Source: Myxococcales bacterium (lineage in GTDB: Bacteria > Myxococcota_A > Bradymonadia > UBA7976 > UBA1532). From it: a stretch of 64,000 nucleotides of DNA. Of this stretch, positions 9,716 through 58,845 are shown one piece after another; position 1 is the first letter of the stretch; the number at the start of each line of letters is the position of its first letter. The position numbers were made by a program, and so were the translations under genes. The stretch lies in the NCBI GenBank assembly GCA_009692505.1, contig SHZC01000005.1, forward strand, positions 745-64,744, read 5' to 3'. The notes under the pieces were generated by a model, which saw only the letters and a list, made by a program, of their open reading frames with translations, ran no database searches and was not told where the DNA came from.

Positions 9716-9794
9716 CGCTCATTTTCCTCTCGATTACGGCTCGTCGCAGCGCATCCTAACATCCGCGCCCCAGACTCCGACGGACGAGTATTTC

Positions 9795-19238: not shown

Positions 19239-19462
19239 GATTCTCCGTCGTCTGCGCCGGGCTCACCGACGTGGACCGTCTCGCCGACATTTGCTTCCGT
19301 CTCGTAGAACGCGCTCGTCATCTGACGCTCGACGACCACGCCGAGCTCGTTCTCCAGCGCCTTCGTCAGTTCAAGGCAGGCGCCCCCAGAGGCCCCCTTC
19401 ACCGTCACCTTGACCTCGCCGTCCGGCGTGATCTCGATGTGCAACTCGGTCTTTACTGCCAT
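19235..19462 (-). CDS. DUF2997-like small protein
   Basis: The sequence MAVKTELHIEITPDGEVKVTVKGASGGACLELTKALENELG matches the DUF2997 pattern. There is a 10-nt overlap (ATGGCAGTAA) with the DUF1257 gene. Confidence 0.7.
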
Positions 19463-19848
19463 TTGCGCACCGTGATGGAGATGGTTTGCTCGGTGGAGAC
19501 CTCTTCGGTCTCGATGGTGTAGCCCTGTCGGGCCACCTCGCTGAGGACTTTGTGATAGGCGTATCGCTGCGTGACGGTCTTCATAAACGCCTCCTGCGTG
19601 ACGCCGCGGGTCGTCTCGACGCCCCACCAGTCGGCGACGAACTCGTAGCCGTCGACGGTCTTCTTGACCCCGATGTCATACGACTTGCTCGCTTTGACCG
19701 ACAGCTCCGCGCGCGTCTTCGCACCCAGATATCCGAGGACCTCTACACCGGCCTCGTCTTCTGTGAAGGCATAGCCCAGATCCGTCAGGGCCTTCTTGAG
19801 GCAGACGAGGTCTTTGATCTTCGTCTGTACGGTCGTGAAGTGACTCAT
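19453..19848 (-). CDS. DUF1257 (Ycf35-like) protein
   Basis: The pattern is [26 protein letters not shown]...YDIGV...FVADWWGV...QRYAYHKV...RKWQ. The start overlaps the AAA+ gene stop (ATGA). Confidence 0.8.
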   Translation of the reverse strand: MSHFTTVQTKIKDLVCLKKALTDLGYAFTEDEAGVEVLGYLGAKTRAELSVKASKSYDIGVKKTVDGYEFVADWWGVETTRGVTQEAFMKTVTQRYAYHKVLSEVARQGYTIETEEVSTEQTISITVRKWQ

Positions 19849-21440
19849 CCGTTTCCGTCCATCTCCAGATTGCGAAAACGGCGGCCGGACGACGGGCCCG
19901 TCCGGCCGCCACCCTCCGCGTTACTGTCATCGTCCATCGGGGCACCAATGGGCAAGCCACTCGCGCTCCGAGCTCGTGAACGGGCCCAGTCTCTGAGCGC
20001 GTCAATCTTCTCCTTCATCGTCAGGCTCAGCGGGATGACCTCGTTACACGCGGTGACCACGCGGGCGGTGTCGACGTCGGTGCTCTCGAAGTAAGCATCG
20101 TAGAGCGCGCTGATGACCGCCTGCTCCATCTCGGCCCCGGAGAACCCGCGGGCGGCCACTGCGAGCGCGTCCAAGTCGAACAACGAGGCGTCCCGGTTCT
20201 TCTTCTTGATGTGAATCCGCATGATGTCGCGCCGCTCGTCTTCGGTCGGCATGTCGACGAAGAAGATCTCGTCGAATCGACCCTTGCGGAGCAGCTCCGG
20301 GGGCATCATGGACACGTCGTTGGCGGTGGCGATGACGAAGACCGGGGAGGTCTTCTCTTGAAGCCAGGTGATGAAGCTGCCGAACACCCTCGCCGTCGTG
20401 CCCGCGTCGCTCTGGCCGGAGGACTGCACGCCGGAGAAGCCCTTCTCCAGCTCGTCGAGCCACAGGATCGCCGGCGCGACGGCCTCGGCGGTGGCGATCG
20501 CCTTGCGGATGTTCTCCTCGGACGAGCCGACGAGCCCGCTAAAGACCTTGCCCACGTCGAGGCGGAGCAGCGGCATCTGCCAGAGCGCACCCACGGCCTT
20601 GGCGGTCATCGACTTGCCACAGCCGGGCACGCCGATGAGCAGGATGCCCTTGGGCACTGGCAAGCCGAAGGTCCGGGCCTTCTGGGAGAACGCGCCTTGT
20701 CGCTTCCGGAGCCAGTCCTTCAGCGCGCTCAGCCCGCCGACGTCGTCGAACTGCTCGAGAGACTCGTAGTACTCGAGCAGGCCGGACTTGCGGATGATCG
20801 CCTTCTTCTCCGAGAGGATGGTGTCCATGTCGAAGTCGCGGTGGCGCACGAGGCTCTTCGCGAGGACGTTATTGGCCTCCTCGTAGGTGAGCCCAAGGGC
20901 CGCCTCGGTGAAGCGGTCGCGGGCCTCGTCCCGGTGGGTGAGCCCAAAGTCCTGGCACAAGCCGTCGATGAGCAGCCGGATGTCCGCGCGGCTCGGCAAG
21001 GCGAAGTCGACGATCGCGACCTCCTTCTCGATCTCGGTCGGGATCTTCATCTGCGCCGAGAGCAGGAGCACGGTCTTGAGCTTCTCGGATTCTTTGAAGT
21101 TGCGGTGGCAATCCCTAAGGCGGCGCACGACCACGGGGTCCTTCAGGTACGGGTGAAAGTCCCGCAGCACGAAGATGGCGCTGTCCTCGAACTTGATGAG
21201 CAGATCGAGGGCCTTGATGGGATCGCGCAGATCGCTGAACTCCTGGTCGCCGGTAAAGCCCTCGGTGATCGACCAGTACAAGAGCTTTCGCTTCACGGCG
21301 CTCTTGGCGTTGAGAGCCTCGCGGGTCGCGCCGATGGCCCGCTCGACGCGCTCCTCCTCGGAGCTGTTGATGTAGATCACCGGATAGCGGGCCTTGACGA
21401 GGTGCTCAAGCTCGGTGCGACTGTCAATCTTCTGGACCAT
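19845..21440 (-). CDS. Ycf46-like AAA+ ATPase
   Basis: Walker A ([13 protein letters not shown]) and Walker B (ILWLDELEK) are present. The N-terminal domain has [14 protein letters not shown] and [11 protein letters not shown], as in Ycf46-type proteins. The start is ATG 21440 or GTG 21443. Confidence 0.85.
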
Positions 21441-21443
21441 CAC

Positions 21444-23690
21444 TTAATCGCTCCCGTAGCCGTGCAGGACGAGGACCTCGCGGAAGACCCTGAGGTGCCT
21501 CTTGAACGTGTCCGCCGCCGTCTTGAGGGCAGAGAGGGTCTCCTCTGCGGCGCCGATCGTGGTGCTCGGATCGGTCTGCGCCACGATGGAGACGGCGCGC
21601 TCGCGGAGGGCTTCGGGCACGGCCTCGGTGGGCAGACCCGCGACGAGCAACGCGCTCTCGCGAAGATCCGCCACATAGGTCTGGGCGAGCTCGACGTTGT
21701 TTCGCAGCTCGCTGGCGAGGTCGTTGATGTCCTCGTAGACCCGGAAGGCGTCGGCCCTGAGTCTCGTGTACTCCGTGGATGAGGGTGCCGGCGCAGCGGA
21801 CGCAGGAGCGGGCACCGCCACGGGCACCTCGAATCCAGCGCCGCGCAGCGCGGTCAAGACATCGATCCCACCCTGCCGTAACCGATCGAGCGTGCGTCTG
21901 AGCTCATCGGTCGGTGAAGGCGCTACGGGGCTTTGACCGTCACCGGAGTCGCCCCACCCCGCCCGCTCCAGCTCATTGCGGTGGTCTCGGTTTTGACGCT
22001 TGAGGTCGTTGATTTGCTCCTGCATGGCGCGCGTGGAGCTCGAGCCCCCGGCGCTCGTCGTCGCGAGGGCGACCTTGGCATCGACGAGTGAGGCGTTGAG
22101 GTTCAAGACGCGCTCGGTGAGCTGGCTGTTTTCGAGCTGCATCTCGGCCTGCCGCCGGACGAGGGCCTCGAGCTCAGCGGTGTGGCTGGCCTGCGGCTTG
22201 GCCGCGACTCGCACGCGCTCGATCTCCAACATCGCCGCCTGTCGCTGCTCGACGAGCGAGGTCTTCTCGAGCGCGAAGTCGGCTCGGATGCGCGCGGTCT
22301 GCTCGGCCACCGCGGCCTGCACATCGCCGTCTTTGTGCTCGGCTCGAAGCTGCCACCGGGCGACCTCAATCTGGAGGCTCTCGATCATGACCTCCTTCTC
22401 GCCGAGCACCTGCTTAAGCGTGGTCATCTCCGCCGAGAGGCCACGGCGCGCACCGTCATCGGAGCCGAGCGCGAGGCGAAGGTTGTCGACCTCGTCCTTC
22501 GCCGCCCGGAGGTTGTACTCGGCGACCTCCAGCGTCTTCTCGGTCTCCTTCTGCCCCTTCTCCTTTTGGCGGACCTCACGCTTGAGGTCGTTCATCTGGC
22601 TGACCAGATCCCCCTCGCGGCTCGTGCCGACGTCGAGCGCCTGCTGGACCTTCGTCGACTTGTCCCGCAGCGTGCCGACCTCAATTTCGAGGTCGATCTT
22701 CTCTCGTCGATAGGCCTCGAGCTGGGCCTGCTGCACTTGAATCTGCTTCGTGAGCTGAACGGAACGCTCGGCCTGCGTCGCGGCCTGCTCGCGCCCGACC
22801 TCCACGGCTCGCTCGAGCTCGCCCATGCGACGGGCCTTGTCCTGGATGTCGCTGCGCAGCTCCGTGAGCTCGACGTCGCTCTTCGTTCGTTCGGCGACGG
22901 CGGAGGCCGCCTCAATCTTCGCGCGCTCGAGGCTGTGAACGCTCCTCTCGAGCTCGTGGCGAAGGTTGTCGCCCGTCTGTTGGGCGATGGATGCGAGGCC
23001 TTCGGAGACGGCGCCAGCCTCAGCCGCGGCTTTCCATCGCTCGACCTCGATCCGCAGTCGGGTCACCTCCGCGCTGTGGTCCGCCGCGGGTTCGGCCCCC
23101 GGTTCGGCCCGCCTGGAAAACCCAGCTTGGCCTGCGGGTGCGACGGGCGGGGCGGTCGCGGCGAGCGGGCGCACGGGCGCGGCTGGCACGGCTGGCAACA
23201 CGCCGACGGGGCGTGGGGCGGCGGCGACAACCGGCCGGGATTCGGCAGGGCTCAAGCGTTGCGGCGCGGGTGAGGGGAGCGCGGGGGGACCGGAGGCTCG
23301 CGCGGCATCGGCTGGCCGCCCGCCCGGACGAAGCGTGCCCACGAGCCGAGGGCTGCCGGCCGGGGCACTGGCGATCAACGCGGCGCGGGGGGTCACCTCC
23401 GCCCATGACATATTGAAGTCGCCGCAGCGGAGGTCATCGCCGTCGCTGAGCTGAGCCCGATTGACCCGCTGGTTGTTGACGTACGTTCCGTTGGAGCTGC
23501 CGAGATCCTCGATGAAGAACAGCTGCCCCTCAAGCCAGATCCGGGCGTGTTTCCGAGAGACCGACGGCTGGTTTACCGAGATCGTGGACTGGGGGTGCCG
23601 CCCGACCGAGGCCTCCTCACCCGCCTGCACCATGACCTCCTTGGGCTCACCTTCGACGGTGCGGTAGGTCAGCTTTGCCTGGCGGGACAT
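21444..23690 (-). CDS. FHA-domain protein with long coiled coil
   Basis: The N-terminal FHA domain reads GRHPQSTISVNQPSVSRKHARIWLEGQLFFIEDLGSSNGTYVNNQRV. About 450 aa of heptad-like E/R/A/L/Q-rich sequence follow. An AAGGAG Shine-Dalgarno sequence sits 7 nt upstream of the ATG. Confidence 0.8.
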   Translation of the reverse strand: MSRQAKLTYRTVEGEPKEVMVQAGEEASVGRHPQSTISVNQPSVSRKHARIWLEGQLFFIEDLGSSNGTYVNNQRVNRAQLSDGDDLRCGDFNMSWAEVTPRAALIASAPAGSPRLVGTLRPGGRPADAARASGPPALPSPAPQRLSPAESRPVVAAAPRPVGVLPAVPAAPVRPLAATAPPVAPAGQAGFSRRAEPGAEPAADHSAEVTRLRIEVERWKAAAEAGAVSEGLASIAQQTGDNLRHELERSVHSLERAKIEAASAVAERTKSDVELTELRSDIQDKARRMGELERAVEVGREQAATQAERSVQLTKQIQVQQAQLEAYRREKIDLEIEVGTLRDKSTKVQQALDVGTSREGDLVSQMNDLKREVRQKEKGQKETEKTLEVAEYNLRAAKDEVDNLRLALGSDDGARRGLSAEMTTLKQVLGEKEVMIESLQIEVARWQLRAEHKDGDVQAAVAEQTARIRADFALEKTSLVEQRQAAMLEIERVRVAAKPQASHTAELEALVRRQAEMQLENSQLTERVLNLNASLVDAKVALATTSAGGSSSTRAMQEQINDLKRQNRDHRNELERAGWGDSGDGQSPVAPSPTDELRRTLDRLRQGGIDVLTALRGAGFEVPVAVPAPASAAPAPSSTEYTRLRADAFRVYEDINDLASELRNNVELAQTYVADLRESALLVAGLPTEAVPEALRERAVSIVAQTDPSTTIGAAEETLSALKTAADTFKRHLRVFREVLVLHGYGSD

Positions 23691-23810
23691 GCGCGCGCTC
23701 CTTGAGCACTGACGGACGGGGATGATGGCGGGTCAAGGACTATAGTCGCGCCGTTGGGGACTGACAACGCCCGGCGGCTTGCGTTAGGGTCGGCCAGAAG
23801 AGCCCGACTG

Positions 23811-28214: not shown

Positions 28215-28544
28215 TCAGCCGGCCACCACCGGCACCGAGCGGGGTCGACTGTCGGGGTTTTTCGGGAGCCTTATGGTCAAGACGCCGCGCTCGAGCCGCG
28301 CTACGCCCTTCTCCGTATCGAAGATCGGCGCGAGGGCGAAGGCGCGTTGATAGACCAAGGGCGGGCCGGTGCCGTCGCTCTTGCGGGTCGCGTTTATCGA
28401 GAGGCGGTCCTTCTCGATCTGGAGGTCCAAGTCTTCGGTCGAGATGCCCGGCAAGTCGGTGATGAGCAGGAAGTCCCGCTCACTCTCGTAGACGTCCATC
28501 ACGGGCGTCCGAGTGGCGCGAGTGGCCGCTGGGGGGCTCGGCAC
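28215..28544 (-). CDS. Hsp20/alpha-crystallin small heat-shock protein
   Basis: The alpha-crystallin domain pattern is seen in MDVYESERDFLLITDLPGISTEDLDLQIEKDRLSI...ARLERGVLTIRLPK. Confidence 0.8.
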   Translation of the reverse strand: MPSPPAATRATRTPVMDVYESERDFLLITDLPGISTEDLDLQIEKDRLSINATRKSDGTGPPLVYQRAFALAPIFDTEKGVARLERGVLTIRLPKNPDSRPRSVPVVAG

Positions 28545-28652
28545 GCGGGTCGGCCTCGTGGTCGGGGGAGCGAAGGGCGAACGCCGCTGCGGGTAGATCT
28601 AGGTCTGAGTGTTCATGTGCTCTGTCCTTCCACTGTCGAGTCGAAGCACCTC

Positions 28653-29130
28653 TCAGTCGGTTGTGATGGGGACGACGCGCGGCTTGGCCTCTTCGGACTT
28701 CTCCAATCGTAGCGTCAGCACCCCGTCTCTCAGCGTAACGGAGACGCGTTCGGGATCAATCCGGGCGGGCACCTTGAAGGTGCGCGTGACCCGGAACGGC
28801 AGTCGCTCGCGGCGGTGCGCGTGGTAGCCCTCCGGGGGGTCCACCGAGCGGTGCGCCGAGACGGTCAGGACGTCCCCGTCCCAACGAAACCGATACCGAC
28901 TTCTCCTTCAGGCCCGGCGCCTCCAGGCGCAAGACAAGGTGGTCGCCACGGCTCTCGAAGACCGGGGCGCGGCCGTCGTCCGGACCGTCCACACGTGCAG
29001 AGTCATCCTCCTCGAAGTCGCGTCGTTTTCCGTCGAAGGTGGAGCTGTGCGGCGCGAATCGGACATCGGCGTCCCCTTTGGGGTTTCGCGAGACATCGCT
29101 CGCGGCCCCTCGGCGGATAATCACCCGGCC
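28653..29130 (-). pseudogene. second Hsp20 gene split by a 1-nt frameshift
   Basis: The N-terminal half of the alpha-crystallin domain (FESRGDHLVLRLEAPGLKEKSVSVSL) lies in the frame of ORF 28756..29193. The continuation (DGDVLTVSAHRSVDPPEGYHAHRRERLPFRVTRTFKVPARIDPERVSVTLRDGVLTLRLEK) lies in the frame of ORF 28653..28844. The switch occurs at the C-run 28880..28882. The 5' boundary is uncertain. Confidence 0.6.
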
Positions 29131-29137
29131 GCGTGCG

Positions 29138-30439
29138 TCAAGGCGTGTTCGCGTCGATGACCGTGACGCTCGACAAACCGGGCATGGCCTCAATCTTTGG
29201 CCTCACCTCAGCCGCCGTGCAGACCATGATGGCGTGAAGGTCCTGCGGGCGCAGACGCCTCCGCACCGCATCCCGCACGCCCTCCGGAGAAAGAGCGCGG
29301 AGTCGGTCACAGTAGGTGTCGATGCTGTCATCGGGTCGGCCCAGAATCCGCGCGCTCACGACCTGTCCACACCGCAGCGAGGGGACCTCCACCCGGAAGG
29401 GGTGCTGGTTGAGGAGATAACCCCGCGCGAACTCGATCTCGTCGTCCGTCAGCCCCTCGTCGACGAAACGCGAGTACTCATCGAAGATCAGCTGCATCGT
29501 CTCTGGGGCGTAGGTCAACGCCGGCGCGGCCTGCATCATGTAGTTGCCCGAGGCCCGCTCCGAGGCGAGGCGAGCGTAGGCTCCATAGGACCAGCCCCGC
29601 TTGACCCGTACCTCGTCCATGAGGCGGGCGGTGAACGTGCCCCCGAAGGCCGTCGTCGCCAGCGAGACTGCGAGGTAGTCCGGATCGCAGGCGACCATCG
29701 AGGGGTGCCCGATGAGGAGCTGCGCCTGCGACCGCTCGGGCTTGTCGATGAGCAGGATATGCCGGCCGACGACGGCGGGGGGCGGGTCGAAGTGGCCGAC
29801 GAGCGGCGCGTCTTCGAGGGCGTCGTACAGCGGGCGCAAGCGTGTGAGCAGGGTCTCGGCCTCAAGGTCCCCGCTCGCGCCGACGACCAGATTCGGCCGG
29901 GAATAGAGGCGCGCGGCGAAAGACAGGACGTCCTCGCGGGTGATCGCCGCAAGCCCGGCCGCCGTGCCCACGGCCCCGTGACCGAAGGGGTGCCCTCGAA
30001 AAACGGTCCGTCGGAACCAAATGGCCGCGAGCGTCGCGTCGTCGTCCCGACCGGCGACCTGCTCGGCCTGAATCTCCCGCCGTACCTTCTCCAGCTCGTC
30101 GGTCTCGAAGGTCGGCTCCGTGACGACCTCGACGAGGAGCTCGAGGAAGGCCTCCAAGTTGCGCCCGAGCACCGAGCCCCCGATGGAGACCGCGTCGCGT
30201 TGCGTGCTCGTCGACATCTCGGTGCCCAGCGCCTCGATGGCCTCCTCGAGCTCGGCGCGACCCCGCCTTCGCGTGCCCCTCATAAGCATCCGATGGGTCA
30301 GCGACGTGAGGCCTTCGAGCCCCGGGGGATCAAACGCCGGACCGCCTCGAAAGTGCAGGTAGACGTTGGCGATTGGCAGCGCGTGATGGGCGACCAAAAT
30401 GGTCTGTTCAGCGAGGGACGGCGGCGGGGATTCGTTCAT
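29138..30439 (-). CDS. M16-family peptidase, non-catalytic-type subunit (no HxxEH)
   Basis: The M16 fold pattern is present, with LTHRMLMRGT where HxxEH would be. The ATG at 30439 overlaps the ATPase stop (ATGA). There is no signal peptide. Confidence 0.8.
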   Translation of the reverse strand: MNESPPPSLAEQTILVAHHALPIANVYLHFRGGPAFDPPGLEGLTSLTHRMLMRGTRRRGRAELEEAIEALGTEMSTSTQRDAVSIGGSVLGRNLEAFLELLVEVVTEPTFETDELEKVRREIQAEQVAGRDDDATLAAIWFRRTVFRGHPFGHGAVGTAAGLAAITREDVLSFAARLYSRPNLVVGASGDLEAETLLTRLRPLYDALEDAPLVGHFDPPPAVVGRHILLIDKPERSQAQLLIGHPSMVACDPDYLAVSLATTAFGGTFTARLMDEVRVKRGWSYGAYARLASERASGNYMMQAAPALTYAPETMQLIFDEYSRFVDEGLTDDEIEFARGYLLNQHPFRVEVPSLRCGQVVSARILGRPDDSIDTYCDRLRALSPEGVRDAVRRRLRPQDLHAIMVCTAAEVRPKIEAMPGLSSVTVIDANTP

Positions 30440-31746
30440 CGACACAGCTCCAAAAGGCGACGGCGGGTCTCGGCGATGGGGGTGCCGTCCCTGGGCGATT
30501 GGCGAAGGAAAGCCTCGATCTCGACGCGGCGCTCGAGGAAGGCGTCGACCTCCCGGTCCGAGCCCCGGACATAAGCCCCCACGGCGAGGAGATCGGAGCG
30601 GGTCTCGAAGGCCGAGACCCATCGACGCAGGCGCGAGGCCGCCTTGAGGTCTTTGGCCTCGACCACGCTCTCATGACAGCGGCTGATGCTCCGGGGGATG
30701 TTGACCGCCGGGAACCGACCTGCACCCGCGAGGGCCGGATCCAGGACGAGGTGCCCATCGACGAGCGAGCGGACCTCCTCGGCGACGGGATCATCGGCGT
30801 CGTCCCCCTCGACGAGCACGGCGAGCAGGCCGGTCAGCGTGCCGACGGGTCCATTTCCGATGCGTTCCAGGAGCTGCGGCAAGACCGTGGACATCGACGC
30901 GGGATAGCCTCTGCGGCCGACCGGCTCACCGGCCGCGAGCCCGATGACCCGGAGCGCGCGAGCGACCCGCGTGATGGAGTCGCAGACGAGGAGGACGTTT
31001 CGCCCGTCGTCCCGTTGTCGCTCGGCCAAGGCGATGGCGCACTCGAAGGCCCGCACCCAGGTCAGGGGGGGCTCGTCGGCCCGAGCGAGGACGACGGTGG
31101 TGCGTCTTCGGGCGACCTCGTCCAGGGAGCGGACAAAGGGCCCGACCTCTCGCCCGCGCTCGCCGATGAGGGCCACCACCACGACGTCGACCTCGGCGGT
31201 CACGGCCACCTGCGAAAGCAGCGTGCTCTTACCCGCGCCGGGCCCGCTCTGGAGCGCGAGTCGTTGCCCCAGGCCGAGCGGGCACAAGGCATCGACGACG
31301 CGAATGCCCGTGGAGAGCACCTGGGTGACGGGTCTTCGAGTGAGGGGATCGGGAGCGGCACGGCGCAGCGGCCAGTCGGCTTGGCCTTCGAGCGGGCCCA
31401 ATCCATCGATGGGGCGACCGGCGGCGTCGAGGATGCGACCGAGGACCTCGTCACCGGCGACGAGGAGCGGTTGATCGCACAGGACCCTCGCCGGCGCGCC
31501 CGAGCGGAGGCCGTGGGTCGAGGACAACGCGAGGGCCACGGCCACGGTCCCCTCGAAGGCGACGACCTCGGCCTCGAACCGCTCATCGAGGAGCAGGCGC
31601 GCGCCGAGTCGGGCCTCGCCTAATGCGACCTGAATCGCCGGACCCCGCACCGAGACGACGTGCCCGCGCTCGCTCGGGAGGCCTGCACGAATCGCCTCGG
31701 TCAGCGCGCGAAGGCCCGGCGCCATGCCGTGAGGGATCGGCGTCAT
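30436..31746 (-). CDS. FliI/YscN-family (type III secretion-type, F1-like) ATPase
   Basis: Walker A (GPGAGKSTL) and Walker B (VLLVCDSITRVARALR) are present. Other family signatures are LLAVLVEGDDADDPVAEEVRSLVDGHLVL, the RFPAVNIPRSISR motif and the C-terminal LLAVGAYVRGSD...FLRQ. Confidence 0.85.
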   Translation of the reverse strand: MTPIPHGMAPGLRALTEAIRAGLPSERGHVVSVRGPAIQVALGEARLGARLLLDERFEAEVVAFEGTVAVALALSSTHGLRSGAPARVLCDQPLLVAGDEVLGRILDAAGRPIDGLGPLEGQADWPLRRAAPDPLTRRPVTQVLSTGIRVVDALCPLGLGQRLALQSGPGAGKSTLLSQVAVTAEVDVVVVALIGERGREVGPFVRSLDEVARRRTTVVLARADEPPLTWVRAFECAIALAERQRDDGRNVLLVCDSITRVARALRVIGLAAGEPVGRRGYPASMSTVLPQLLERIGNGPVGTLTGLLAVLVEGDDADDPVAEEVRSLVDGHLVLDPALAGAGRFPAVNIPRSISRCHESVVEAKDLKAASRLRRWVSAFETRSDLLAVGAYVRGSDREVDAFLERRVEIEAFLRQSPRDGTPIAETRRRLLELCR

Positions 31747-33071
31747 GCCGTCAGGGGTCGGCCCACAACGACCGTGCGGTTCTCCGGTCGGAGGATGTCA
31801 GAGGCCACCCGCCTCACGTCCTCGACGCAGACGGCGGCGTAGCGCGGAGACTGGTTGAACAGGCCCTTGAAGTCGCCCCCGGTGACCTCCCAGAAGCCCA
31901 GCGAGTTGGCGCGTTGCTGGGCGGTCTGGAGGCCTTGGTAAAAGCGGGTCTCCAGCTTATTACGGGCCTTCGAAAGCTCGGCCGCCGTCACGCCTTCGAC
32001 GCTGAGCTGCGCGAAGATGGACAAGAGCACCTCCTCGGCGGCTTCTGCGGTCTCGTCTTCCCGAAGGTCGACGCTGATCTCGTACAGGCCCGTCTCGCGA
32101 AAAGGCGGCACGGAGGCCGAGAAGCCCGACGCGAGCTCGCCGTCCGTCACGAGCGCGCGCTGGAGCCGCGAGGAGTCGCCCTCCGAGAGGATCTCATTGA
32201 GGATCTCGAGCGCGGGGAAGTCGTCGGAGGTCATGGCCGGCGCTTTGTAGCCGACGATGAGTCGCTCAGCGGTCAGCGAGAGCCGCTCCTCGCGGCGGCG
32301 GACCTCGGTCTGAACGGGCTCCGGCGTCAGGTCCGGCTGGGGCAGGTCTTGGGCCCGAAGGTGGCCGTACGCGCCGATGATCCGCTCAAGGCAGTGGCCG
32401 CTCTCGAAGTCGCCGACGACCACGAGGACGGCGTTGTTGGGCGAATAATATCGCTCGTAGAAGGTCGTGCAGTCCGCCAGCGAGAGCTGCTCGATGTCCG
32501 CCATGAAGCCGATGGTGGGGTGGCCATAAGGGTGTGAGGGGAACGCCAGCTCCCAGAGCACCTCGCCGAGCTTGCCGTTCGGATCGTTGTCGACACGCTC
32601 CCGTCGCTCGTTGATGACGACCTCGCGCTCGGCCTCGAGCTGTGCCTCGTTGAGGACCATGTTCTCCATGCGGTCGGCCTCAAGCGCGATGACCGCGTCG
32701 AGGTGCGCCTTGGGCACGTCCTCGTGGTAGTAGGTCCAGTCCAGCCAGGTGGCCGCGTTCACTCGTGCCCCGAAGCCCTCCATCGTGCGGTCGAATACGC
32801 CCGCTGGCGTATTTTTCGTCTCCTTGAACATGAGGTGCTCGAAGAGGTGCGCGATGCCGGATTTCCCAATCTGCTCGTGGCGGCTGCCGACCCGGAACCA
32901 CGTCTGGTAGCTGAACACGGGCGCTTGGGCGTCCGGCAGGAGCAGCACGACAAGCCCGTTGTCGAGCCGGTATTTCGAGATGGCGAAACGCCCTTGCCAA
33001 TCAAAGGTCTCAACGAGGGTGGCACCCGAGATCATGTCGACGTCTCCCACAGTTTCAGCGGCCCGACGCAC
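31743..33071 (-). CDS. M16-family zinc peptidase, catalytic-type subunit
   Basis: The HxxEH motif is present (GIAHLFEHLMFK), with a downstream EREVVINERR. The stop overlaps the ATPase start (ATGA). The start is GTG 33071 or ATG 33035. There is no signal peptide. Confidence 0.85.
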   Translation of the reverse strand: MRRAAETVGDVDMISGATLVETFDWQGRFAISKYRLDNGLVVLLLPDAQAPVFSYQTWFRVGSRHEQIGKSGIAHLFEHLMFKETKNTPAGVFDRTMEGFGARVNAATWLDWTYYHEDVPKAHLDAVIALEADRMENMVLNEAQLEAEREVVINERRERVDNDPNGKLGEVLWELAFPSHPYGHPTIGFMADIEQLSLADCTTFYERYYSPNNAVLVVVGDFESGHCLERIIGAYGHLRAQDLPQPDLTPEPVQTEVRRREERLSLTAERLIVGYKAPAMTSDDFPALEILNEILSEGDSSRLQRALVTDGELASGFSASVPPFRETGLYEISVDLREDETAEAAEEVLLSIFAQLSVEGVTAAELSKARNKLETRFYQGLQTAQQRANSLGFWEVTGGDFKGLFNQSPRYAAVCVEDVRRVASDILRPENRTVVVGRPLTA

Positions 33072-33086
33072 GCTACCCTACCGGTC

Positions 33087-33147
33087 GGTTCACGTCTCTG
33101 GTCACGTCTCTGGTCACGTCTCTGGTCACATCTCTGGTCACGTCTCG
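33087..33147. repeat. 5 tandem copies of a 12-bp unit GGTCACGTCTCT
   Basis: The copies are ggttcacgtctct, ggtcacgtctct, ggtcacgtctct, ggtcacatctct and ggtcacgtctcg. The array spans the DUF423 stop codon and the gap before the M16 gene. Confidence 0.95.
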
Positions 33148-33506
33148 CGTGCTGAAAACGCAAAGGCGACCCAGCCGACCATGAACGCGAGGCCGCCGAT
33201 GGGGGTCAGGCGCGGCAGAAAGGCCACCTCAGTGAGCACATAGCCGTAGAGGCTGCCGCTGAAGAGGAGCGTGCCGATGCCGAACGCCAGGCCCGCCGTC
33301 CGCACGGCGCGAGGTCGCACGCTGCGCACGGCGACAAGCGAGAGGGCGATGAGGCCGAGCGCGTGATAAATCTGGTACCGAGCCGCGGTCTCCCAGATCT
33401 CCAGGGCTCGTGGCGTCACACGTTCCCGGAGCCCGTGCGCGCCGAAGGCTCCGAGCACCACAGCGACGGCCATCGACAGACCTCCCGTGACAGCCAGTCG
33501 CGACAC
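33138..33506 (-). CDS. DUF423 (YgdD/TMEM256-like) membrane protein
   Basis: The sequence VVLGAFGAHGL...YQIYHALGL...LFSGSLY...GGLAFMVGW shows the four-TM pattern. Confidence 0.8.
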   Translation of the reverse strand: MSRLAVTGGLSMAVAVVLGAFGAHGLRERVTPRALEIWETAARYQIYHALGLIALSLVAVRSVRPRAVRTAGLAFGIGTLLFSGSLYGYVLTEVAFLPRLTPIGGLAFMVGWVAFAFSARET

Positions 33507-33509
33507 CCC

Positions 33510-36500
33510 TCAGTTCTCCCGCGTCACGAAGAGGGTCTGGCGGCTCGAGAGCTGCTCGTCTTCGCGCGCGATCACCGTGATGCGATTGACGCCCGCGTCG
33601 AGGGGGAGGCGCGCCGAGAAGCGCATGAGCGCGCGGTCCCCGTCGGCCCGGGCGTTCGACTTGAAGTAGACTTTTTTATTGTTCACGTAGATCAGCAGGT
33701 CGCGCACGAGGTTCACCGCGAGGGCCTCGCCGCTCAGGGTCAAGGAGTCGCTCTTGGTCTCGGCTTTGCCGTGGTCCGACAGCGTGATGACCGGAGGGCC
33801 GACCAACGGGGCACGCTCGATGCGGCCGCTCGGCTCACTCGGCTCGCCTCCATCCGGCGTCGCCGCCACGTCGTCCTGATGGACCCACGCGAAGAGCTTT
33901 CGCTCCAGCGGCACCCGATACCAGGCACCGAAGCGCCCATCGCTGCGGATCGGCTGTCGAGAGACCTGCGCCCGATGAGCGACGGGGGCCGCGCTCGAGG
34001 GCGTACCCCGAAGCCTAAGCTCAGAGCCGGTCTTGGCCGTCAGGCGCGTCCGCTCAAGGGCGACCGGTTCGCCTCTCGGCACGGCCAACAGCGTCAGCTT
34101 CTCGCTCGTGCCCTCGCGAAGCTCCCCATCGAAGACTCCGATGGAGATGGGCAGGTCGGGCTTGACGAGCAGCTCCTTGGCCCGAAACGAGAGGCGCGCG
34201 TGCCCAATCTGACCGGGCAGGAGCTCCAAGAGATCCGCCCTGCCGCGCTTGATGAACACCGGCCGCAGCTCGTCCTCTTCGACGGCGTTTAAGGCCACCT
34301 GCGCGCCGAAGCTCTTGCCCTTGCCGACGTTCTGCACATCGAGCACCACCTCGACCTCCTCACCCATCTGGATCAAGCCGTCGCCGTTGCCGGTCACGCT
34401 GTCGTCGAGGGCGTAGCTCAAGGCGAATCGCGGGCGCTCGAGCTGGGTGACGGAGAGCCGGGTCTTGACCTCCGCAGGGGCGTGGCCCCCCTCCTCGAAG
34501 AACTCGATCCGCACGGCGTCGCGGCGGGACAACGCGTGGCGCGGGGCCTTGAGCTTCAGTACCCAGGTCTTTTCGGCGCCGGGCTCGAGGGTGCCGAAGA
34601 GCAGCTCATGCCCGTCGAAGAGCTCGTTGTCGGAGCGGGTCAAGGCATGAAGATTTCGCAGCGCGCCCGGGCCGAGATTTCGGACCGTGGTCGTCACAGT
34701 CGCCGTCTCACCCGCCACGATCTCCCCGGCGGCGGGCTCCGTCACGACGGTGATTTGAGCCTCGGGCGCGGGCCCGCTCGACGCACGACGGGTGAGGGGC
34801 GTGGCGGTCCACACGATGCCCCGTGCGGAGAGCGCGGCCACGATGCCCGCCATCTCCGCCTCGGTCTTGGCCAACAGCACCCCACGCACGTCCGAGAGGA
34901 AGGCATCTCTTCGCCCGGCGTCCGTCGAGGCGATGAGGTCCCGGGCGAACGCGATCTCGAAGTCCACGATGAGGTCGTTGGGGTGGTCCTCGATCTCGCG
35001 GGCGAGCTTGGGGTCGAGCAGGTACCTCAGGGTCAACTCCGAGCGCACAGCCTTCGAGATCTGGCTCGACTCATGGTCGAGGTGGCCCTCGAGCTCCTTC
35101 TCGCCGGTCTTCAGGCTCTCGCTTCGGAAGAAGTCCGTGTCCTCGTCCGTGAGCACGACCGGCAGCGTGGCGATGTCCGGCACGATGCCCACCGACTGGA
35201 TGCTGATGTCGCCGGGCGTCAGGTACTGGGCGATCGTCAGCTTCAGTGCCGAGTCATCTTTATTGTCGTAGATGACCTGGACTGAGCCCTTGCCGAACGT
35301 CTGCTGTCCGATCACGACCGCCCGCTTATGGTTCTTCAGCGCGCCGGCCACGATCTCGCTGGCACTGGCACTCTGGCGGTTCGTGAGCACGACGAGGGGG
35401 TAGTCCTCCTCGGTGCCCACGCCTATCGCCATCTTCGGCTCCCGCAGCTTGTCGCCATAGCCGACGGTCGTCACGATGGGCCCGCTCTCCACGAAGCGGT
35501 CGGCGATCTTTATGGCCTGATCGAGCAGGCCGCCGGGGTTGTCGCGGAGGTCGAGGATCAGGCCGTTGAGCGGACGCCCCACGCCCCGAAGGTCGTTGAG
35601 GGCGACCTCGACCTCATCGTCCGTCGTGTTCTGGAAGTTGCGGATGCGGATGAGGCCGACGCGGTCCGCGAGGAGCTTGTGGTCCACGCTTTGGACCTTG
35701 ATGTTGGCGCGCGTCAGCGTGAACTTCCGGGGCGCCTTCCAGCCCTCGCGGACGATGTGAATGTCCACCTTGCTCTTGGGGGTTCCGCGCAGGAGGTCCA
35801 CGGCGTCCTGAAGGGCCATATTGACCGTGCTGTCGAGGTTGATCTGGACGACCCGATCCCCGGGCTTGATGCCCGCATCTGCCGCCGGCGTATCAGGGAT
35901 GGGATTGACGACGACGAGGTGCCCGTCCTTCACGCTGATGACGATGCCGAGGCCGCCGAACTTGCCCCGCGTCGTCAGCTTCATCTCCCGGTACTCATCA
36001 GGCCGCATGAGGTTGCTGTGGGGATCAAGCGTCGAGAGCATCCCGTTGATCGCCGCGTATTCGATGTCGTCGAACTTCGAGTAGTTCAGGAGGTTGGGCT
36101 GAATGAACCGGAAGATGTCGCGGAACTTAAACGCGGTCTGCCAGAGGCTGTCGACGTCTCGAAGCTCGAAGGCCTGCTCGGCTTCGTTGACCCGCACGAG
36201 CAAGCGGGTCGGCAGCTCGTTGTCGTCGCGCTCGACCTGAACGAGCAGCTCGGGCACCTGCTGCTGAACCGCCTCCATGGCCGCCCCGACCATACGTCGC
36301 CAGTTTATGCGCGAGGGGTCGACGTAGTTTTCGTGGATCTGCCGTATCGCGCGATCGAGGACGACGAGGTGCGTGAGATCGTAGGCCGGATTTCCGTCGT
36401 TCTCGCTCTGCGCGCTCGCCGGTCGGGCCGTGAACTCGAGCTGCCAGTCCGGATCGCCGAACTCGTACGAGATGCTCACGTAGAAGGCCGCGAACAAGGC

Positions 36501-36533
36501 GGCCAGCGCGATCACGGGCCTGTAGATGGGCAT
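33510..36533 (-). CDS. S41-family C-terminal processing peptidase with PDZ domain and ~450-aa C-terminal extension
   Basis: A TM anchor (MPIYRPVIALAALFAAFYV) and a PDZ domain (GGLGIVISVKDGHLVVVNPIPDTPAADAGIKPGD) are present. S41 motifs are LILDLRDNPGGL and SASASEIVAGALKNHKRAVVIGQQTFGKGSVQ. I chose the ATG at 36533. Confidence 0.85.
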   Translation of the reverse strand: MPIYRPVIALAALFAAFYVSISYEFGDPDWQLEFTARPASAQSENDGNPAYDLTHLVVLDRAIRQIHENYVDPSRINWRRMVGAAMEAVQQQVPELLVQVERDDNELPTRLLVRVNEAEQAFELRDVDSLWQTAFKFRDIFRFIQPNLLNYSKFDDIEYAAINGMLSTLDPHSNLMRPDEYREMKLTTRGKFGGLGIVISVKDGHLVVVNPIPDTPAADAGIKPGDRVVQINLDSTVNMALQDAVDLLRGTPKSKVDIHIVREGWKAPRKFTLTRANIKVQSVDHKLLADRVGLIRIRNFQNTTDDEVEVALNDLRGVGRPLNGLILDLRDNPGGLLDQAIKIADRFVESGPIVTTVGYGDKLREPKMAIGVGTEEDYPLVVLTNRQSASASEIVAGALKNHKRAVVIGQQTFGKGSVQVIYDNKDDSALKLTIAQYLTPGDISIQSVGIVPDIATLPVVLTDEDTDFFRSESLKTGEKELEGHLDHESSQISKAVRSELTLRYLLDPKLAREIEDHPNDLIVDFEIAFARDLIASTDAGRRDAFLSDVRGVLLAKTEAEMAGIVAALSARGIVWTATPLTRRASSGPAPEAQITVVTEPAAGEIVAGETATVTTTVRNLGPGALRNLHALTRSDNELFDGHELLFGTLEPGAEKTWVLKLKAPRHALSRRDAVRIEFFEEGGHAPAEVKTRLSVTQLERPRFALSYALDDSVTGNGDGLIQMGEEVEVVLDVQNVGKGKSFGAQVALNAVEEDELRPVFIKRGRADLLELLPGQIGHARLSFRAKELLVKPDLPISIGVFDGELREGTSEKLTLLAVPRGEPVALERTRLTAKTGSELRLRGTPSSAAPVAHRAQVSRQPIRSDGRFGAWYRVPLERKLFAWVHQDDVAATPDGGEPSEPSGRIERAPLVGPPVITLSDHGKAETKSDSLTLSGEALAVNLVRDLLIYVNNKKVYFKSNARADGDRALMRFSARLPLDAGVNRITVIAREDEQLSSRQTLFVTREN

Positions 36534-36876
36534 GGCGACCTCAACTTCGAATCCATCGTTCGAGTATACGACCAGCGGGCCGTTCTGATCTTTAGGCAGG
36601 CGGGCGACGGCCCGGGCAGGGCAATCGCACCTTGAATCGGGACGACGTGCTCGGTGATCCCTGCGCCCCTCGAGGGGTCTGTGACGCTGGGTGAAGGCGA
36701 CTGCGTGACGCTGCGGGGGGTCGACTCCCGGCGCAGTGGCCCGGGGTGGTGCGCCCGACCCCTTGGCGGCTGACGGTGGCTCGCTCAGAGGGCGCACGCC
36801 GTCGGAGGCTCTTCGTTGGCGCGTCGGGCCGGTGTGCCCTGTTGCGGTCGCGTATCAAAGAGGTCGCCTCGACGCC

Positions 36877-37489
36877 GTGTCGAGCCCGCACCCACACGAC
36901 GCCTTCTTTCAGGACGTCTTCTCCGATCCCAAGAACCTCGCCGCGCTCGTGCGCTCGATTCTGCCGGCGTCGGCGGTCGCACGGCTGGACTTCGAGCACT
37001 TGACGGTGCTGGCGGACCGTTACGTCGACGAGGCTTTACAAGCCTTCGAGACGGATCTTCTGGCCCTGGTCCCGATTGTAGAGGCCTCGGAGGAGGCGAC
37101 CGGGGCGTTCACCGATCTGCTCGTGGGGTGCTCGTCGAGCACCAGAGCACCCATGACCCATTCATGGCGCTGCGGGTCCTCAGCGACATCGCGCAGGTCT
37201 GGCAGGCTTGGCGGCGCGATCACCCGGAGGCGCGGACGCTGCCGATTGCCGTGCCCATCGTCGTCTATAACGGCGAGCGGCCATAGACGGCGATGGGGCC
37301 AATCGGCGCGGTCGCGTGGAGGGCCGCGTGGAGGGTGAGCGCGCCCTGCTCCGAGCGCTCATCGTGCACAAGTTTGGGGTCATTCCGCGATCGGTCGAAG
37401 CGGCCCTCGAGACCGCCGATGAACCGTCGCTCTCGGTCTGGGCGGAGCGCATCTTCTCGGCCCGGTCTGCGGAAGATGTCGTCGCCTAG
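36877..37489 (+). pseudogene. relic of an Rpn/YhgA-like PD-(D/E)XK recombination-promoting nuclease (putative transposase)
   Basis: The N-terminus VSSPHPHDAFFQDVFSDPKNLAALVRSILP lies in one frame. The segment VLVEHQSTHDPFMALRVLSDIAQVWQAWRRDHPEARTLPIAVPIVVYNGERP lies in another frame and ends at a TAG. A DUF4351-like tail RVEGRVEGERALLRALIVHKFGVIPRSVEAALE...WAERIF lies in a third frame, and the middle of the gene is missing. Confidence 0.65.
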
Positions 37490-37785
37490 CGGGCGATCTG
37501 TGCGGAGACCCAGTCCCGACAGAGGCCGTTCAAATCACCAACCTGGCCACACCACTCGATGTGCACCCAATCGTCGGCACCGGCGAGCATGCCGATCAGG
37601 GTCGACAGGATGATGCCCGACAGCGGATGAAGCTTGGTCAGGTTCACCCGCGGACCCGGCATGTCCTCGAAATAGGACGTGATCACGGTGACGCGGTCGC
37701 TCGGCATGGGCTGTTCCTCCGCCGGCCGCCACTGGAACGTGCGCGCAAGCCCAAGCCTCAGATTGCGCATACTTGCGATTGTCAA
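37486..37785 (-). mobile_element. truncated ISAs1-family (H-repeat) transposase N-terminal fragment
   Basis: The sequence YFEDMPGPRVNLTKLHPLSGIILSTLIGMLAGADDWVHIEWCGQ matches the DDE_Tnp_1-associated N-terminal domain. Only about 75 aa remain, and no DDE core follows. Confidence 0.55.
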
Positions 37786-37875
37786 TGACGATCACGTGCA
37801 GTCGCCCTGACGGCCCGGGGCACCACGCTTGACAGCTCGCTTCGCCACAGCCTAAGAGCCCGCATCGGAGGTTTC

Positions 37876-38280
37876 ATGGCTGAAAAAATCGACCGTCCCA
37901 CGATTCTCGTCGCCGACGACGACGAGGAGATTCGCCGAATCGTGCGCAAGCTGCTCGAGAAGAACGGCTACCACGTGATTGAGGCAAGGGACGGCGAGGA
38001 GGCCTTGTCCCTGCTCATCGAGGAGACGCCTCAAGGGGTGATCCTCGACGTCATGATGCCCACCCTCACCGGCTGGGAGATCTGCAAGTACGCGCGGACG
38101 CACCCGGCCTACGAGAAGACGGCGATCCTGATGCTCACGGGCATCGGCCGCACGGTCAACGAGATGACCTCCCCGCTTTATGGCGCGGATGCCTATCTCG
38201 ACAAGCCCTTCGAGCTCGTCGAGTTGAAGAACACACTGAGCCGCATTTTGGCTGAGCGGGGGGCTGAGCGGGGGACCTGA
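37876..38280 (+). CDS. single-domain response regulator (CheY-like)
   Basis: The canonical receiver residues are present: ILVADDDEE, VILDVMMPTLTG, LMLTG and DAYLDKPF. Confidence 0.85.
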   Translation: MAEKIDRPTILVADDDEEIRRIVRKLLEKNGYHVIEARDGEEALSLLIEETPQGVILDVMMPTLTGWEICKYARTHPAYEKTAILMLTGIGRTVNEMTSPLYGADAYLDKPFELVELKNTLSRILAERGAERGT

Positions 38281-38311
38281 ACCGGAAGGTCGCCCACGGG
38301 CCTCCGCCGTT

Positions 38312-40830
<2,519 letters not shown>

Positions 40831-40834
<4 letters not shown>

Positions 40835-42729
40835 GCCAAGACGCTCGTTTCTTCGGCGTCCAGCGCGTCGCCGAGAACGCGGGCGTCGAGGTGTTGGGCC
40901 CGCAGATTCAGCTCGCTTGCGGTGTCGGTCCGCCCTGTCAGCTCGTGAATCTCCGCGAGGAAACGGAAGGCCTGAGCGAAGGAGGGATCACTCGAAACCG
41001 CGCGTCGCACCAAGTCCTCGCCTTCGGCCAAAGCCTCCGACGACCCGGCCACGGCGAACAGGGCCCGCCCATAATGCGCGATGTACAGCGGCTCCTCCGG
41101 ACGCGCGGCATGGGCTCGGGCGAAGGCCTCATTCGCCGCCGCGAGCTCACCTTTGCGCCAGTGGGCCTCACCCGCGCGGAACCACTCCTCGGCGTCGAAC
41201 ACCGGGAACATCGACGGCACGGCGTTCACGGCGGGCAGTTGCGCGTCGTAGCTCTCGCGCAGCCGGGGGTCCGAGAGCACGCCGAAAGCCTGCCCGACCT
41301 TGATGAAGACCTCCTTCGCGCGGAGCCGAACATCGAAGTCGGGATGTTCAACGAAGCGGTCGGGATGAAAGTCCCGGCAGATCGCCAAATATGCGGCCTC
41401 GAGCGCGGCCTCGTCTGCGCCGCGTGGAAGCCCCAAGACCGCGTAGTGCGTGCCGCCGCGAGTGGCGAGGTAGCGGGCGAGGACCTGTTCGGCGGTCGGG
41501 TCGGACGTGTGTGGCGTTTGAGCGTCGAGCTGCTCTTCGGTGTCGAGGATGTACTCGAAGGCGACCCGCCCCGGCAGCGTAGACTGCTCCGGCAAGACGT
41601 CGTCGTCGACGCAGACGGCCCCGGCGGCGCGCAGGACGACGAGCACCGCGGCCGCTCGAGTGGCTGCGAGTCGGAGCCCGTCGACGAGGTCAGCCACTGT
41701 CTCTGACCGGGCGATGACCTCGCTGAGCGGCGGGTCGCGCTGCACCCGATCGAGGAAGGTCTTGAGCTCGTCGACGACGGGCGTGCTCGTCAGGCGCTGC
41801 GTCCGAAGAGCCTCGAGCTGCGCCCGGAGTGCCGACGAGTCGTGACGTCGCAGGACGCCATCGATGAGCAGGGTCAGAGGGTTCATCGGGAACATGAGCT
41901 TGTCGTCGATGAACCGATCGTCACGATAAAAAGCATAACGTGCGTCGTCCCAAGTGAAACACCGCGCGACCCGCTCACGAACCTGACCCCGCAGGAGCGC
42001 GTACACCCCCTGATTGTTCAGGATGCCGAGGGCCACGAGCGCTTCACCTTGGCGCACGCCCTGGGCACGCATGAACCGGAGGACGTCGGCGTGCTGCGAC
42101 TCCGACAGCGAGCCGCGCGCAAGCAAGAAACGACCAAACGTCTCGGAGAGCAGGTTGCTCTCGGCGAAGACGGGCAGCCCCTTGAGCAGATAGATGTCGC
42201 GTCGGACGCCGTCCCTCTCGAGGCGCAGCATACCCGTGGCGGACTGGCGCAGGAGGGTGAGCAGAACGGACGAGAGCGCGTCGCCTTTGAGTTCGCCGGA
42301 GATGGAGATGGGTGCCTCGGGTTCGGGCGGCGCCCCATCGAAACGGCTCCCGAGCGCCGACTCGAGCGCCATGAGCAGCTCAGGCACCCGGAACGGCTTG
42401 AGCAGGAAACCCTGCGTGAATCCGGGACCGTGCTGGAGCAAACGCACCTGCGCCTGCGGCGACGTCGCCATGACCACAACCGGGACCTCTTCGTCCAAGC
42501 GGCGAAGGTGATCGACGACGCGCCCCCCCTCGACGCCGGGTACGAGGTGCTCGACCAAGACCAAGTCTGGCCGCCGATTTTCGAACTCGACGAGCCCGGC
42601 TTGACCATCGCGGCAGAGCGTCGGCCGGAAGCCCGATCGGGAAAGGACCTCGACCAGCTTGTCGCCGATTCGGGGGTTGTCCTCGATGATCAAAACGTGG
42701 GCGCCAGCTGATTCCAAACGACCCTTCAT
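40831..42729 (-). CDS. atypical receiver - DUF4388 - MshEN-like - J-domain - TPR protein
   Basis: The receiver domain (HVLIIEDNP...DLVLVEHLVPGVEG...VVMATS...LLKPF) has Glu at the phospho-acceptor position. Other regions are GMLRLERDGVRRDIYLLKGLPVFAESN and a J-domain (HYAVLGLPRGADEAALEAAYLAICRDFHPDRF). I chose the ATG at 42729. Confidence 0.8.
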
Positions 42730-42812
42730 ACCACCCCCGGTCGGATGCCTGCCAGAAACGCCCGGCGACTGACATTGAATCTCGCGCACGGGGCGTGCTA
42801 AGCCGCGCCGCC

Positions 42813-58818: not shown

Positions 58819-58845
58819 CAGCCGCCTGGACCCCTTGGAGCCCCG

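Follow-up and report, generated by a model that had tools for sequence, protein, structure and literature searches.

A conserved Myxococcota operon places a FliI/SctN-family ATPase gene between the two subunit genes of an M16B peptidase

The stretch of DNA considered here (the window; 64,000 nucleotides of contig SHZC01000005.1 from the Myxococcales bacterium assembly GCA_009692505.1, genome GC content 67%) carries on its minus strand three overlapping genes. The outer two, M16a and M16b, encode the subunits of an M16 peptidase, and the gene between them encodes an ATPase of the FliI/SctN family. To our knowledge, such ATPases are known only from flagellar or injectisome export machines. The M16-embedded ATPase operon is a real, conserved, strain-independent and apparently undescribed variant, occurring in a single, largely uncultured lineage of Myxococcota. 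An earlier note, made from the letters of the window alone, had described the gene triad and proposed that its products form a three-part machine, with an ATP-driven motor feeding a peptidase chamber. The triad, read from the minus strand, consists of the following elements.

31743-33035, minus strand: M16a, predicted active subunit of a heterodimeric M16B zinc peptidase (430 amino acids, aa; Pfam Peptidase_M16, 4e-22, and Peptidase_M16_C, 6e-28)
31743-31746, minus strand: ATGA overlap of the M16a stop and the ATPase start, read directly in the sequence
30436-31746, minus strand: FliI/SctN-family ATPase (436 aa; Pfam ATP-synt_ab and T3SS_ATPase_C)
30436-30439, minus strand: ATGA overlap of the ATPase stop and the M16b start, read directly in the sequence
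29138-30439, minus strand: M16b, predicted inactive M16B subunit (433 aa; Pfam Peptidase_M16, 5e-14, and Peptidase_M16_C, 3e-25)

The corresponding open reading frames (ORFs) span 31743-33071, 30436-31746 and 29138-30439. For M16a, the ATG at 33035 is a more likely start than the alternative GTG at 33071, because a Shine-Dalgarno-like GGGAGA precedes it and it is the start called on 99%-identical contigs. The gene order and both ATGA overlaps are as the earlier note had reported them. The 4-bp overlap of M16a and the ATPase gene is also called in the homologous loci L006, L007, L008 and L010, and that of the ATPase gene and M16b in L006 and L007. Pfam annotation of about 45 ORFs spread over the 64 kb returned no SctV/FlhA, SctRSTU, SctJ, SctQ, SctL, SctO or flagellar gene, again in agreement with the earlier note; the sole signal resembling a type III secretion system (T3SS) stems from FHA domains that cross-match Yop-YscD_cpl. 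A defence-system role for the triad was dropped, as PADLOC gave no match for M16a, the ATPase or M16b. Maturation of ribosomally synthesised and post-translationally modified peptides by the M16 pair was likewise rejected, there being no conserved precursor or radical-SAM neighbour; one radical-SAM gene is found near the pair in L006, on the opposite strand and not conserved.

Assignment of the middle gene to the FliI/SctN family, as proposed from the sequence alone, is borne out by several comparisons. Both Pfam models are matched over their full length (ATP-synt_ab, 4.4e-64; T3SS_ATPase_C, 1.4e-17), and the alignment of the protein to EscN, YscN and FliI covers its full length, with e-values of 1e-82 for EscN and YscN. 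Aligned to EscN, it has the Walker A motif GPGAGKST, the segment LIGERGRE, the Walker B motif VLLVCDSITR and the arginine finger SISR. An AlphaFold2 (AF2) model, computed from an alignment of 24 members of the clade described below and compared by Foldseek, reaches a predicted local distance difference test score (pLDDT) of 91.5 and template-modelling (TM) scores of 0.83-0.93 to FliI (2DPY, 5B0O) and full-length EscN (6NJO); the predicted structure has the three-domain F1-like fold. The scores against curated NCBIfam models lie under the cutoffs: 368.1 for TIGR01026 (cutoff 379.5), 409.7 for the best equivalog, FliI_clade1 (cutoff 619.1), and 395.6 for the SctN equivalog (cutoff 604.75), such that the protein lies far under the cutoffs of all FliI (clade 1-3) and SctN equivalog models.

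Walker A, GERGRE, Walker B and the arginine finger do not vary among the 24 clade members, and about 110 alignment columns are invariant at 50-60% identity. Judged from this alignment, the ATPase is under clear purifying selection. It is probably a cytoplasmic, still active, F1-like enzyme, predicted to form a hexamer. That it is a decaying or non-functional copy, a possibility the earlier note had tied to substitutions at catalytic positions, is highly improbable: the ORFs are full length, the catalytic positions are among the invariant columns, and the AF2 model is confident. What speaks for decay is one truncated copy (locus L169, see below), the secondary loss of the gene in some lineages, and the TIGR01026 score slightly under its cutoff.

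The clade has signatures of its own, namely ARADxPPL, DPVAEE and LAGAGxFPAV. One position stands out. The Asp of the motif PA[IV]D is present in 95 of 97 non-clade FliI/SctN sequences, and within the clade the same position is occupied by Ala (9), Asp (5), Arg (4), Ser (3), Asn (2) or Gln (2); the ATPase of the window has Asn at residue 349 (FPAVN). This variability suggests changed constraints on the protein. An N-terminal amphipathic helix, which resembles the FliH-binding helix of FliI, is kept with conserved hydrophobic positions (L15 in at least 90% of sequences). Further features of the clade are an invariant Cys in S.SRC and a near-invariant Cys in LCT.

The closest homologues of the ATPase, at 52-64% identity (P0002-P0028), stand apart as a group: a gap in score follows, and then many matches at 45-50%. 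When library sequences are clustered at 50% identity, one representative remains of the clade, and beyond it the bit score falls from 692 to 476. By these scores, the M16-embedded ATPases are a small, tight family. Loci were gathered by gene-context look-ups and by DNA-pattern scans of genomes and of metagenomes, using a hand-made degenerate sequence for the clade motif DPVAEExRxLxDGH. A scan seeded with the ATPase protein only gave 4 unrelated matches; among the matches listed for a scan seeded with the clade alignment only generic FliI/SctN loci were present, and these were reused as a negative control.

The clade ATPase is found on 20 distinct contigs from metagenome-assembled genomes (MAGs) labelled Myxococcota, Myxococcales, Bradymonadia and Nannocystaceae; carriers of the operon include GCA_963169045.1, GCA_041389985.1, GCA_023150895.1 and GCA_051276005.1. 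M16b lies directly downstream in all 19 contigs whose downstream flank is visible. M16a lies directly upstream in 12 contigs and does not in 5 (the group of L005, L175, L176, L260 and L268); in L005 a separate M16a is located about 7 kb farther upstream of the ATPase gene. Counted over stored stretches with a clade ATPase, an M16 neighbour is present in 16 of 18, the other two ending before the neighbour position. The negative control gives 0 of 170: among the further FliI/SctN loci that these scans retrieved, none has an M16 gene. The clade is seen in the M16-embedded setting only, and none of its members was found elsewhere. The earlier note had named two outcomes that would speak against a meaningful association, namely orthologues residing in ordinary T3SS or flagellar clusters and M16 flanks confined to one strain; neither was encountered.

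The genes outside the block vary from locus to locus (UbiA, ClpB, a MarR-type regulator with methyltransferase, AAA_15, FHA, AhpC), indicating that genomes were rearranged around a conserved core, and the junction of ATPase gene and M16b is unbroken in the 19 contigs despite these shuffled surroundings. No FliH, SctL, SctO or gate gene occurs within 10 kb of the ATPase gene in any orthologous locus. The association has a single evolutionary origin, and the ATPase-bearing loci are therefore not independent events. We consider the clade, as delimited by sequence, a new, rare and narrow SctN/FliI subfamily linked to an M16B operon. A literature search found no paper that ties a FliI/SctN ATPase to an M16/insulinase peptidase, which fits the statement of the earlier note that the role was undescribed, and nothing relevant on orphan SctN in Myxococcota.

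The flanking genes encode a peptidase of a known type. M16a has the zinc-binding motif HxxEH (HLFEH at residue 63) and, further downstream, the glutamates of NERRER; M16b has neither HxxEH nor a NERRER-type distal Glu, so that the presence of the motif in one subunit only, noted before, is seen in the sequence. The best match of M16a in the PDB is 3AMJ_C, annotated as 'zinc peptidase active subunit' (1.6e-59), and that of the M16b clade profile is 3AMJ_B, 'zinc peptidase inactive subunit' (1.2e-61). Since each subunit best matches the corresponding 3AMJ chain, M16a and M16b are predicted to be an M16B heterodimer of the Sph2681/Sph2682 type, in line with the active/inactive pair that the earlier note had supposed.

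The peptidase genes also occur without the ATPase. A genome scan seeded with the M16b alignment gave 80 loci, 70 of which are distant (32-42% identity) and include Chondromyces apiculatus, Minicystis rosea and MAGs labelled Nannocystis exedens and Labilithrix luteola. In all distant loci with a visible upstream flank (about 70 Myxococcota loci), M16a and M16b are directly adjacent and no ATPase gene is present; ATPase-less adjacent pairs span L184-L253. The pair is part of a larger block, whose two further members lie upstream of M16a in the window.

33138-33506, minus strand: small DUF423 membrane protein, conserved neighbour upstream of the M16 pair (Pfam DUF423, 2e-28)
33510-36533, minus strand: large membrane-anchored S41/PDZ C-terminal processing peptidase (Pfam Peptidase_S41, 2e-49, and PDZ)

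By synteny, the S41 gene is the first of a conserved block S41-DUF423-M16a-(ATPase)-M16b; its ORF extends to 36797, and the start at 36533 is the one used by gene callers on 99%-identical contigs. DUF423 is found in the equivalent position in L007, L008, L180, L165, L184, L291 and L292. The order S41-DUF423-M16a-M16b without ATPase is found in L184, L291 and L292, and S41-M16a-M16b without ATPase in L182. Because the M16 genes adjoin each other without the ATPase in other Myxococcota loci, the gene order indicates that the peptidase operon is ancestral and the ATPase gene an insertion.

The phylogeny of the M16 subunits adds losses to this picture, although the trees are of the neighbour-joining type with moderate support, and the number of ATPase losses is uncertain. 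The M16 clade that unites the ATPase-bearing loci with L182, L184, L291 and L292 is recovered in 200 of 200 bootstrap replicates. Only 0-1 of 200 replicates recover the ATPase-bearing loci on their own as monophyletic. A grouping of L291 and L292 with L008, L180 and L181 appears in 127-156 of 200 replicates for the concatenated and M16a data sets, and in 14 of 200 for M16b alone. The nesting of ATPase-less loci inside the clade implies secondary loss, and the simplest reading of the trees is one gain of the ATPase followed by losses in which the M16 pair was rejoined. A candidate intermediate is found in the Bradymonadia MAG Deming_bin.242 (contig JBMOFP010000230), where L169, 1463-3638, contains a second copy of the module. 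Its ATPase is cut 5' of Walker A, with homology beginning at query residue 169, and the adjoining M16b is intact; the MAG also carries a complete three-gene set (L110/L177). L169 looks like an ATPase loss in progress.

An ATP-dependent chambered protease would have its ATPase and its peptidase in one compartment wherever it occurs. Neither M16 ORF of the window could encode a signal peptide, the in-frame upstream sequence being too short or non-hydrophobic, which confirms what had been stated for these two proteins; in most other ATPase-bearing loci, too, both M16 proteins lack one. At least five ATPase-bearing loci differ (L007, L165, L180, L179 and L181). Each of these encodes M16b with a Sec-like signal peptide, and M16a has a lipobox signal in L007, L165 and L180, the three export-type loci that show M16a (for example MRRWHIGFLGVWLAAC and MKIVCLRALGALALVALAAC). 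The ATPases of the same five loci are intact and have no signal, so the putative partners would occupy different compartments there. A shared compartment wherever the system occurs is thus not what is found, and neither is obligate co-occurrence, as the M16 pair is present without ATPase in L182, L184, L291 and L292 as well as in 69 outgroup loci. In the outgroup, about 15% of M16 pairs are exported, about 59 of 70 loci have a signal-less pair with no ATPase nearby, and the signals change in both subunits together. Across the family, exported forms combine a lipobox on M16a with a Sec-type signal on M16b. This joint switching implies that the heterodimer as a whole has often moved between the cytoplasm and the envelope. 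The exported or switching loci comprise L007 (8559-12645), L165, L180, L179 and L181 among those with an ATPase, and L185-L188, L191, L195, L200, L202, L220, L244, L247 and L253 in the outgroup.

These observations bear on the machine proposed in the earlier note, in which an ATPase hexamer would dock onto the cytoplasmic M16a/M16b clamshell and feed it with unfolded polypeptide, forming an ATP-dependent protease. The conserved linkage on which the proposal was built stands; the cytoplasmic machine itself received no direct support, and we consider it unlikely as a general account. In its favour are the strict, exclusive and translationally coupled adjacency, which holds for ATPase and M16b even where M16a is not directly upstream (as in L005), the intact catalytic motifs of the ATPase, and the absence of signal peptides from both M16 proteins in the window and most ATPase-bearing loci. 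Weak hints of a link to proteostasis are the Hsp20-like ORFs after M16b in the window, ClpB after M16b in L006, and a DnaJ gene beside a related orphan ATPase in L024. Against it are the loci, at least five, with export signals on M16 and a signal-less, intact ATPase, and the M16 pair without ATPase in about 70 loci and in 4 loci inside the clade. M16a and M16b are of canonical length with no additional domain in Pfam. Taking triad-specific conserved positions as a proxy for an ATPase interface, just 4 positions of M16b and 2 of M16a are conserved with the ATPase and lost in ATPase-less relatives, and these form no pattern. Neither domain content nor triad-specific positions therefore identify docking elements between the ATPase and the peptidase, the operon contains no stalk or adaptor gene, and no precedent was found in the literature. 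A restricted version, in which an SctN-type hexamer and M16a/M16b would constitute an ATP-dependent protease in the signal-less lineages, including this genome, with the exported variants as secondary departures, seems to us equally doubtful.

The switching of signals could also be read in the opposite direction. If the M16 pair were always extracytoplasmic, its signal-less forms might be exported by a route of the T3SS* type (the needle-less T3SS of Myxococcota), with the embedded ATPase as a dedicated export ATPase. This would agree with the many joint switches of signal state in Myxococcota, with the envelope proteins encoded by the upstream S41 and DUF423 genes, and with the finding that the T3SS* of M. 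xanthus is required for prey lysis (PMC12075869). It would leave unexplained why about 59 of 70 outgroup loci encode a signal-less pair with no ATPase nearby and why no export-gate genes are linked to the operon, and we regard it as very improbable.

The origin of the ATPase was addressed with a bootstrapped neighbour-joining tree (200 replicates), in which the M16-embedded ATPases are monophyletic in 200 of 200 replicates and sit on a long stem. Their nearest relatives in the tree are located outside T3SS clusters, namely in L024 (DnaJ-ATPase-ABC-F) and L013 (rhodanese-ATPase). As a positive control for linked genes, L028 contains a true Myxococcales T3SS cluster of the order SctJ-FliG-SctL-ATPase-SctO...SctQ-SctR-SctS-SctT; its ATPase is 39% identical to that of the window and is found on a different branch, while P0031, with FliH directly upstream (FliH-ATPase-HIT), is on the same branch as the T3SS-cluster ATPases. 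On this topology, the clade ATPase derives from orphan Myxococcota paralogues and not from the ATPase of a T3SS* cluster. Beyond the clade, Myxococcota thus have further SctN-like ATPases encoded away from T3SS clusters, in the arrangements DnaJ-ATPase-ABC-F (L024, 4753-9180), rhodanese-ATPase (L013, 9119-11314) and FliH-ATPase-HIT, along with FliH-ATPase fusion proteins of 630-660 aa (P0256, P0279, P0322 and P0360). Among the loci examined, the neighbours DnaJ, ABC-F and rhodanese of related orphan ATPases were not recurrent.

The scenario we favour, tentatively and with less than even confidence, is that the ATPase is an optional accessory. Its tie to the peptidase would be co-expression in a shared pathway that turns over proteins or peptides, and not an obligate physical complex. 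The history behind it is firmer: an ancient Myxococcota operon encodes the M16a/M16b pair, often behind an S41 protease and DUF423, and one lineage acquired, once, a FliI/SctN ATPase paralogue between M16a and M16b, which has since been inherited together with M16b, often translationally coupled and with all catalytic residues kept. A functional tie of some sort is favoured by the unbroken junction with M16b amid shuffled surroundings, by the frequent translational coupling, by the purifying selection on the ATPase and by the lack of clade members in other settings. Where the M16 pair is cytoplasmic, as in the window, the ATPase could unfold or release proteins whose fragments are finished by the M16 chamber. 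This coupling cannot be the sole or universal role of the ATPase, because the ATPase is kept alongside an exported peptidase and the peptidase persists after loss of the ATPase.

Several points weigh against this scenario. As all ATPase-bearing loci go back to one insertion, retention could be hitch-hiking within a tightly linked pair, without any shared function, and a gene caught inside so compact a pair may not easily be lost or moved. The N-terminal helix together with the complete T3SS_ATPase_C domain suggests an unlinked partner of the FliH/SctL type and possibly a role related to secretion, and natural FliH-ATPase fusions are among the best-scoring non-clade relatives. All of these points favour an alternative that is nearly as likely as the co-expressed accessory, in which the ATPase would serve an apparatus encoded elsewhere, either a dispersed T3SS* or a module containing FliH/SctL, and would merely be trapped between the M16 genes.

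The alternative gains from what is known of secretion in this phylum. T3SS* is present in Myxococcota including Bradymonadia (PMC12075869). M. xanthus has its needle-less system in one large cluster (mxan_2434-2464) with its own ATPase SctN (PMC12075869), whereas in cultured bradymonabacteria the T3SS* genes are dispersed over the genome and an isolated ATPase gene is normal; in strain SEH01, for instance, the ATPase gene is about 520 kb from sctV, and sctR and sctS are on another scaffold (PMC11509652, Table S4). The designation of the ATPase as an orphan in the earlier note is correct in that no T3SS genes are linked to it. It is weaker evidence of independence from secretion than was assumed, because bradymonabacterial T3SS* genes, including that for the ATPase, are scattered in any case (PMC11509652). 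The retention of the ATPase with the M16 pair in either compartment also fits an apparatus encoded elsewhere, as does the occurrence of FliH next to close relatives. On the other side, the ATPase is not an orthologue of the true T3SS-cluster ATPase (39% identity, other branch, long stem), the Asp of PA[IV]D, near-invariant elsewhere in the family, is unconstrained in the clade, none of the loci has FliH, SctL or SctO within 10 kb, and the junction with M16b is never broken despite the shuffled flanks.

The triad can be compared to a number of known systems. With the FliI/SctN ATPases, such as EscN and YscN, the ATPase of the window shares the three-domain fold, Walker A, Walker B, the catalytic Glu, the arginine finger, T3SS_ATPase_C and the N-terminal helix before the beta-barrel. 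The clade departs from them in its position under the curated cutoffs, its separate long-stem branch, the variable Asp of PA[IV]D, and its M16 flanks in place of nearby SctL/FliH, SctO/FliJ and gate genes. The peptidase resembles Sph2681/Sph2682 of Sphingomonas sp. A1 (3AMJ), encoded by two adjacent M16 genes of about 430 aa with HxxEH in one subunit only; in contrast to that pair, M16a and M16b are separated by an ATPase gene in this lineage, and the pairs of relatives alternate between signal-less and exported forms. A more distant likeness exists to the alpha and beta subunits of the mitochondrial processing peptidase. The T3SS* of M. xanthus and clusters of the L028 type come from the same phylum and contain an ATPase of the same family, but there the gene is located between SctL and SctO, with SctJ, SctQ and SctRST near. 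The orphan Myxococcota ATPases (L024, L013, P0031 and the FliH fusions) share 45-48% identity and a location outside T3SS clusters; they differ in their neighbours, as several have FliH adjacent or fused and none is near an M16 gene. As a functional analogy only, the co-encoding of a hexameric-type ATPase with a chambered peptidase recalls the AAA+ proteases (ClpXP, Lon, FtsH, proteasome-PAN), from which the triad differs in its unrelated folds, in an ATPase that the peptidase can do without, and in the separate compartments of the two in some lineages.

The clade has long been kept in a peptidase operon, away from linked secretion genes, and it is part of a wider set of orphan SctN-like ATPases, which suggests that the motor has taken on another task. 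Should it work with the M16 chamber, the triad would represent a new type of ATP-dependent protease, combining an F1-like motor with an M16 'cryptase' and convergent with AAA+ proteases, and would bear on the long-running question whether SctN-type ATPases can unfold proteins in general. Should it work with a dispersed T3SS*, the operon would illustrate a link between secretion and peptide turnover in predatory Myxococcota. The three-gene system is testable and offers natural controls in the lineages that lost the ATPase and in those that export the peptidase.

Synteny with L012, L014 and L291 continues upstream of the peptidase block, at window positions 37789-42882. The first gene there encodes a response regulator that combines PatA_N and DnaJ domains, the second an FHA-TPR protein (about 800 aa), and the third, on the opposite strand, a single-domain response regulator. 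Since the FHA-TPR protein and the single-domain response regulator are conserved with or without the ATPase, they are part of an older neighbourhood. Between the response-regulator and S41 genes, positions 36688-37517 contain a transposase fragment (Transposase_31, ORF 36709-37338). Contig L014 has a DDE_Tnp_1_assoc ORF in place of this stretch, and about 500 bp of the window (37018-37517) are without an L014 counterpart. Downstream of the operon, positions 28316-29128 comprise 813 bp that are absent from L014, a strain contig of 98-99% identity, and begin about 10 bp past the M16b stop. The extra sequence consists of most of an Hsp20 gene (ORF 28215-28544) and a degenerate Hsp20-like ORF (within 28756-29193).

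Farther away, positions 19453-23732 on the minus strand encode an FHA protein (762 aa), an AAA ATPase matching PADLOC IetA models (2e-24) and a DUF1257 protein. The same block is present in L014 and may constitute a defence-like or signalling module. Positions 7085-9718 (minus strand) and 58819-62094 (plus strand) each encode a very large protein whose MopE-type repeats are putatively metal-binding; the latter is followed at the end of the window by a second S41 protease, of the Tsp type, at 62095-63999 (plus strand).

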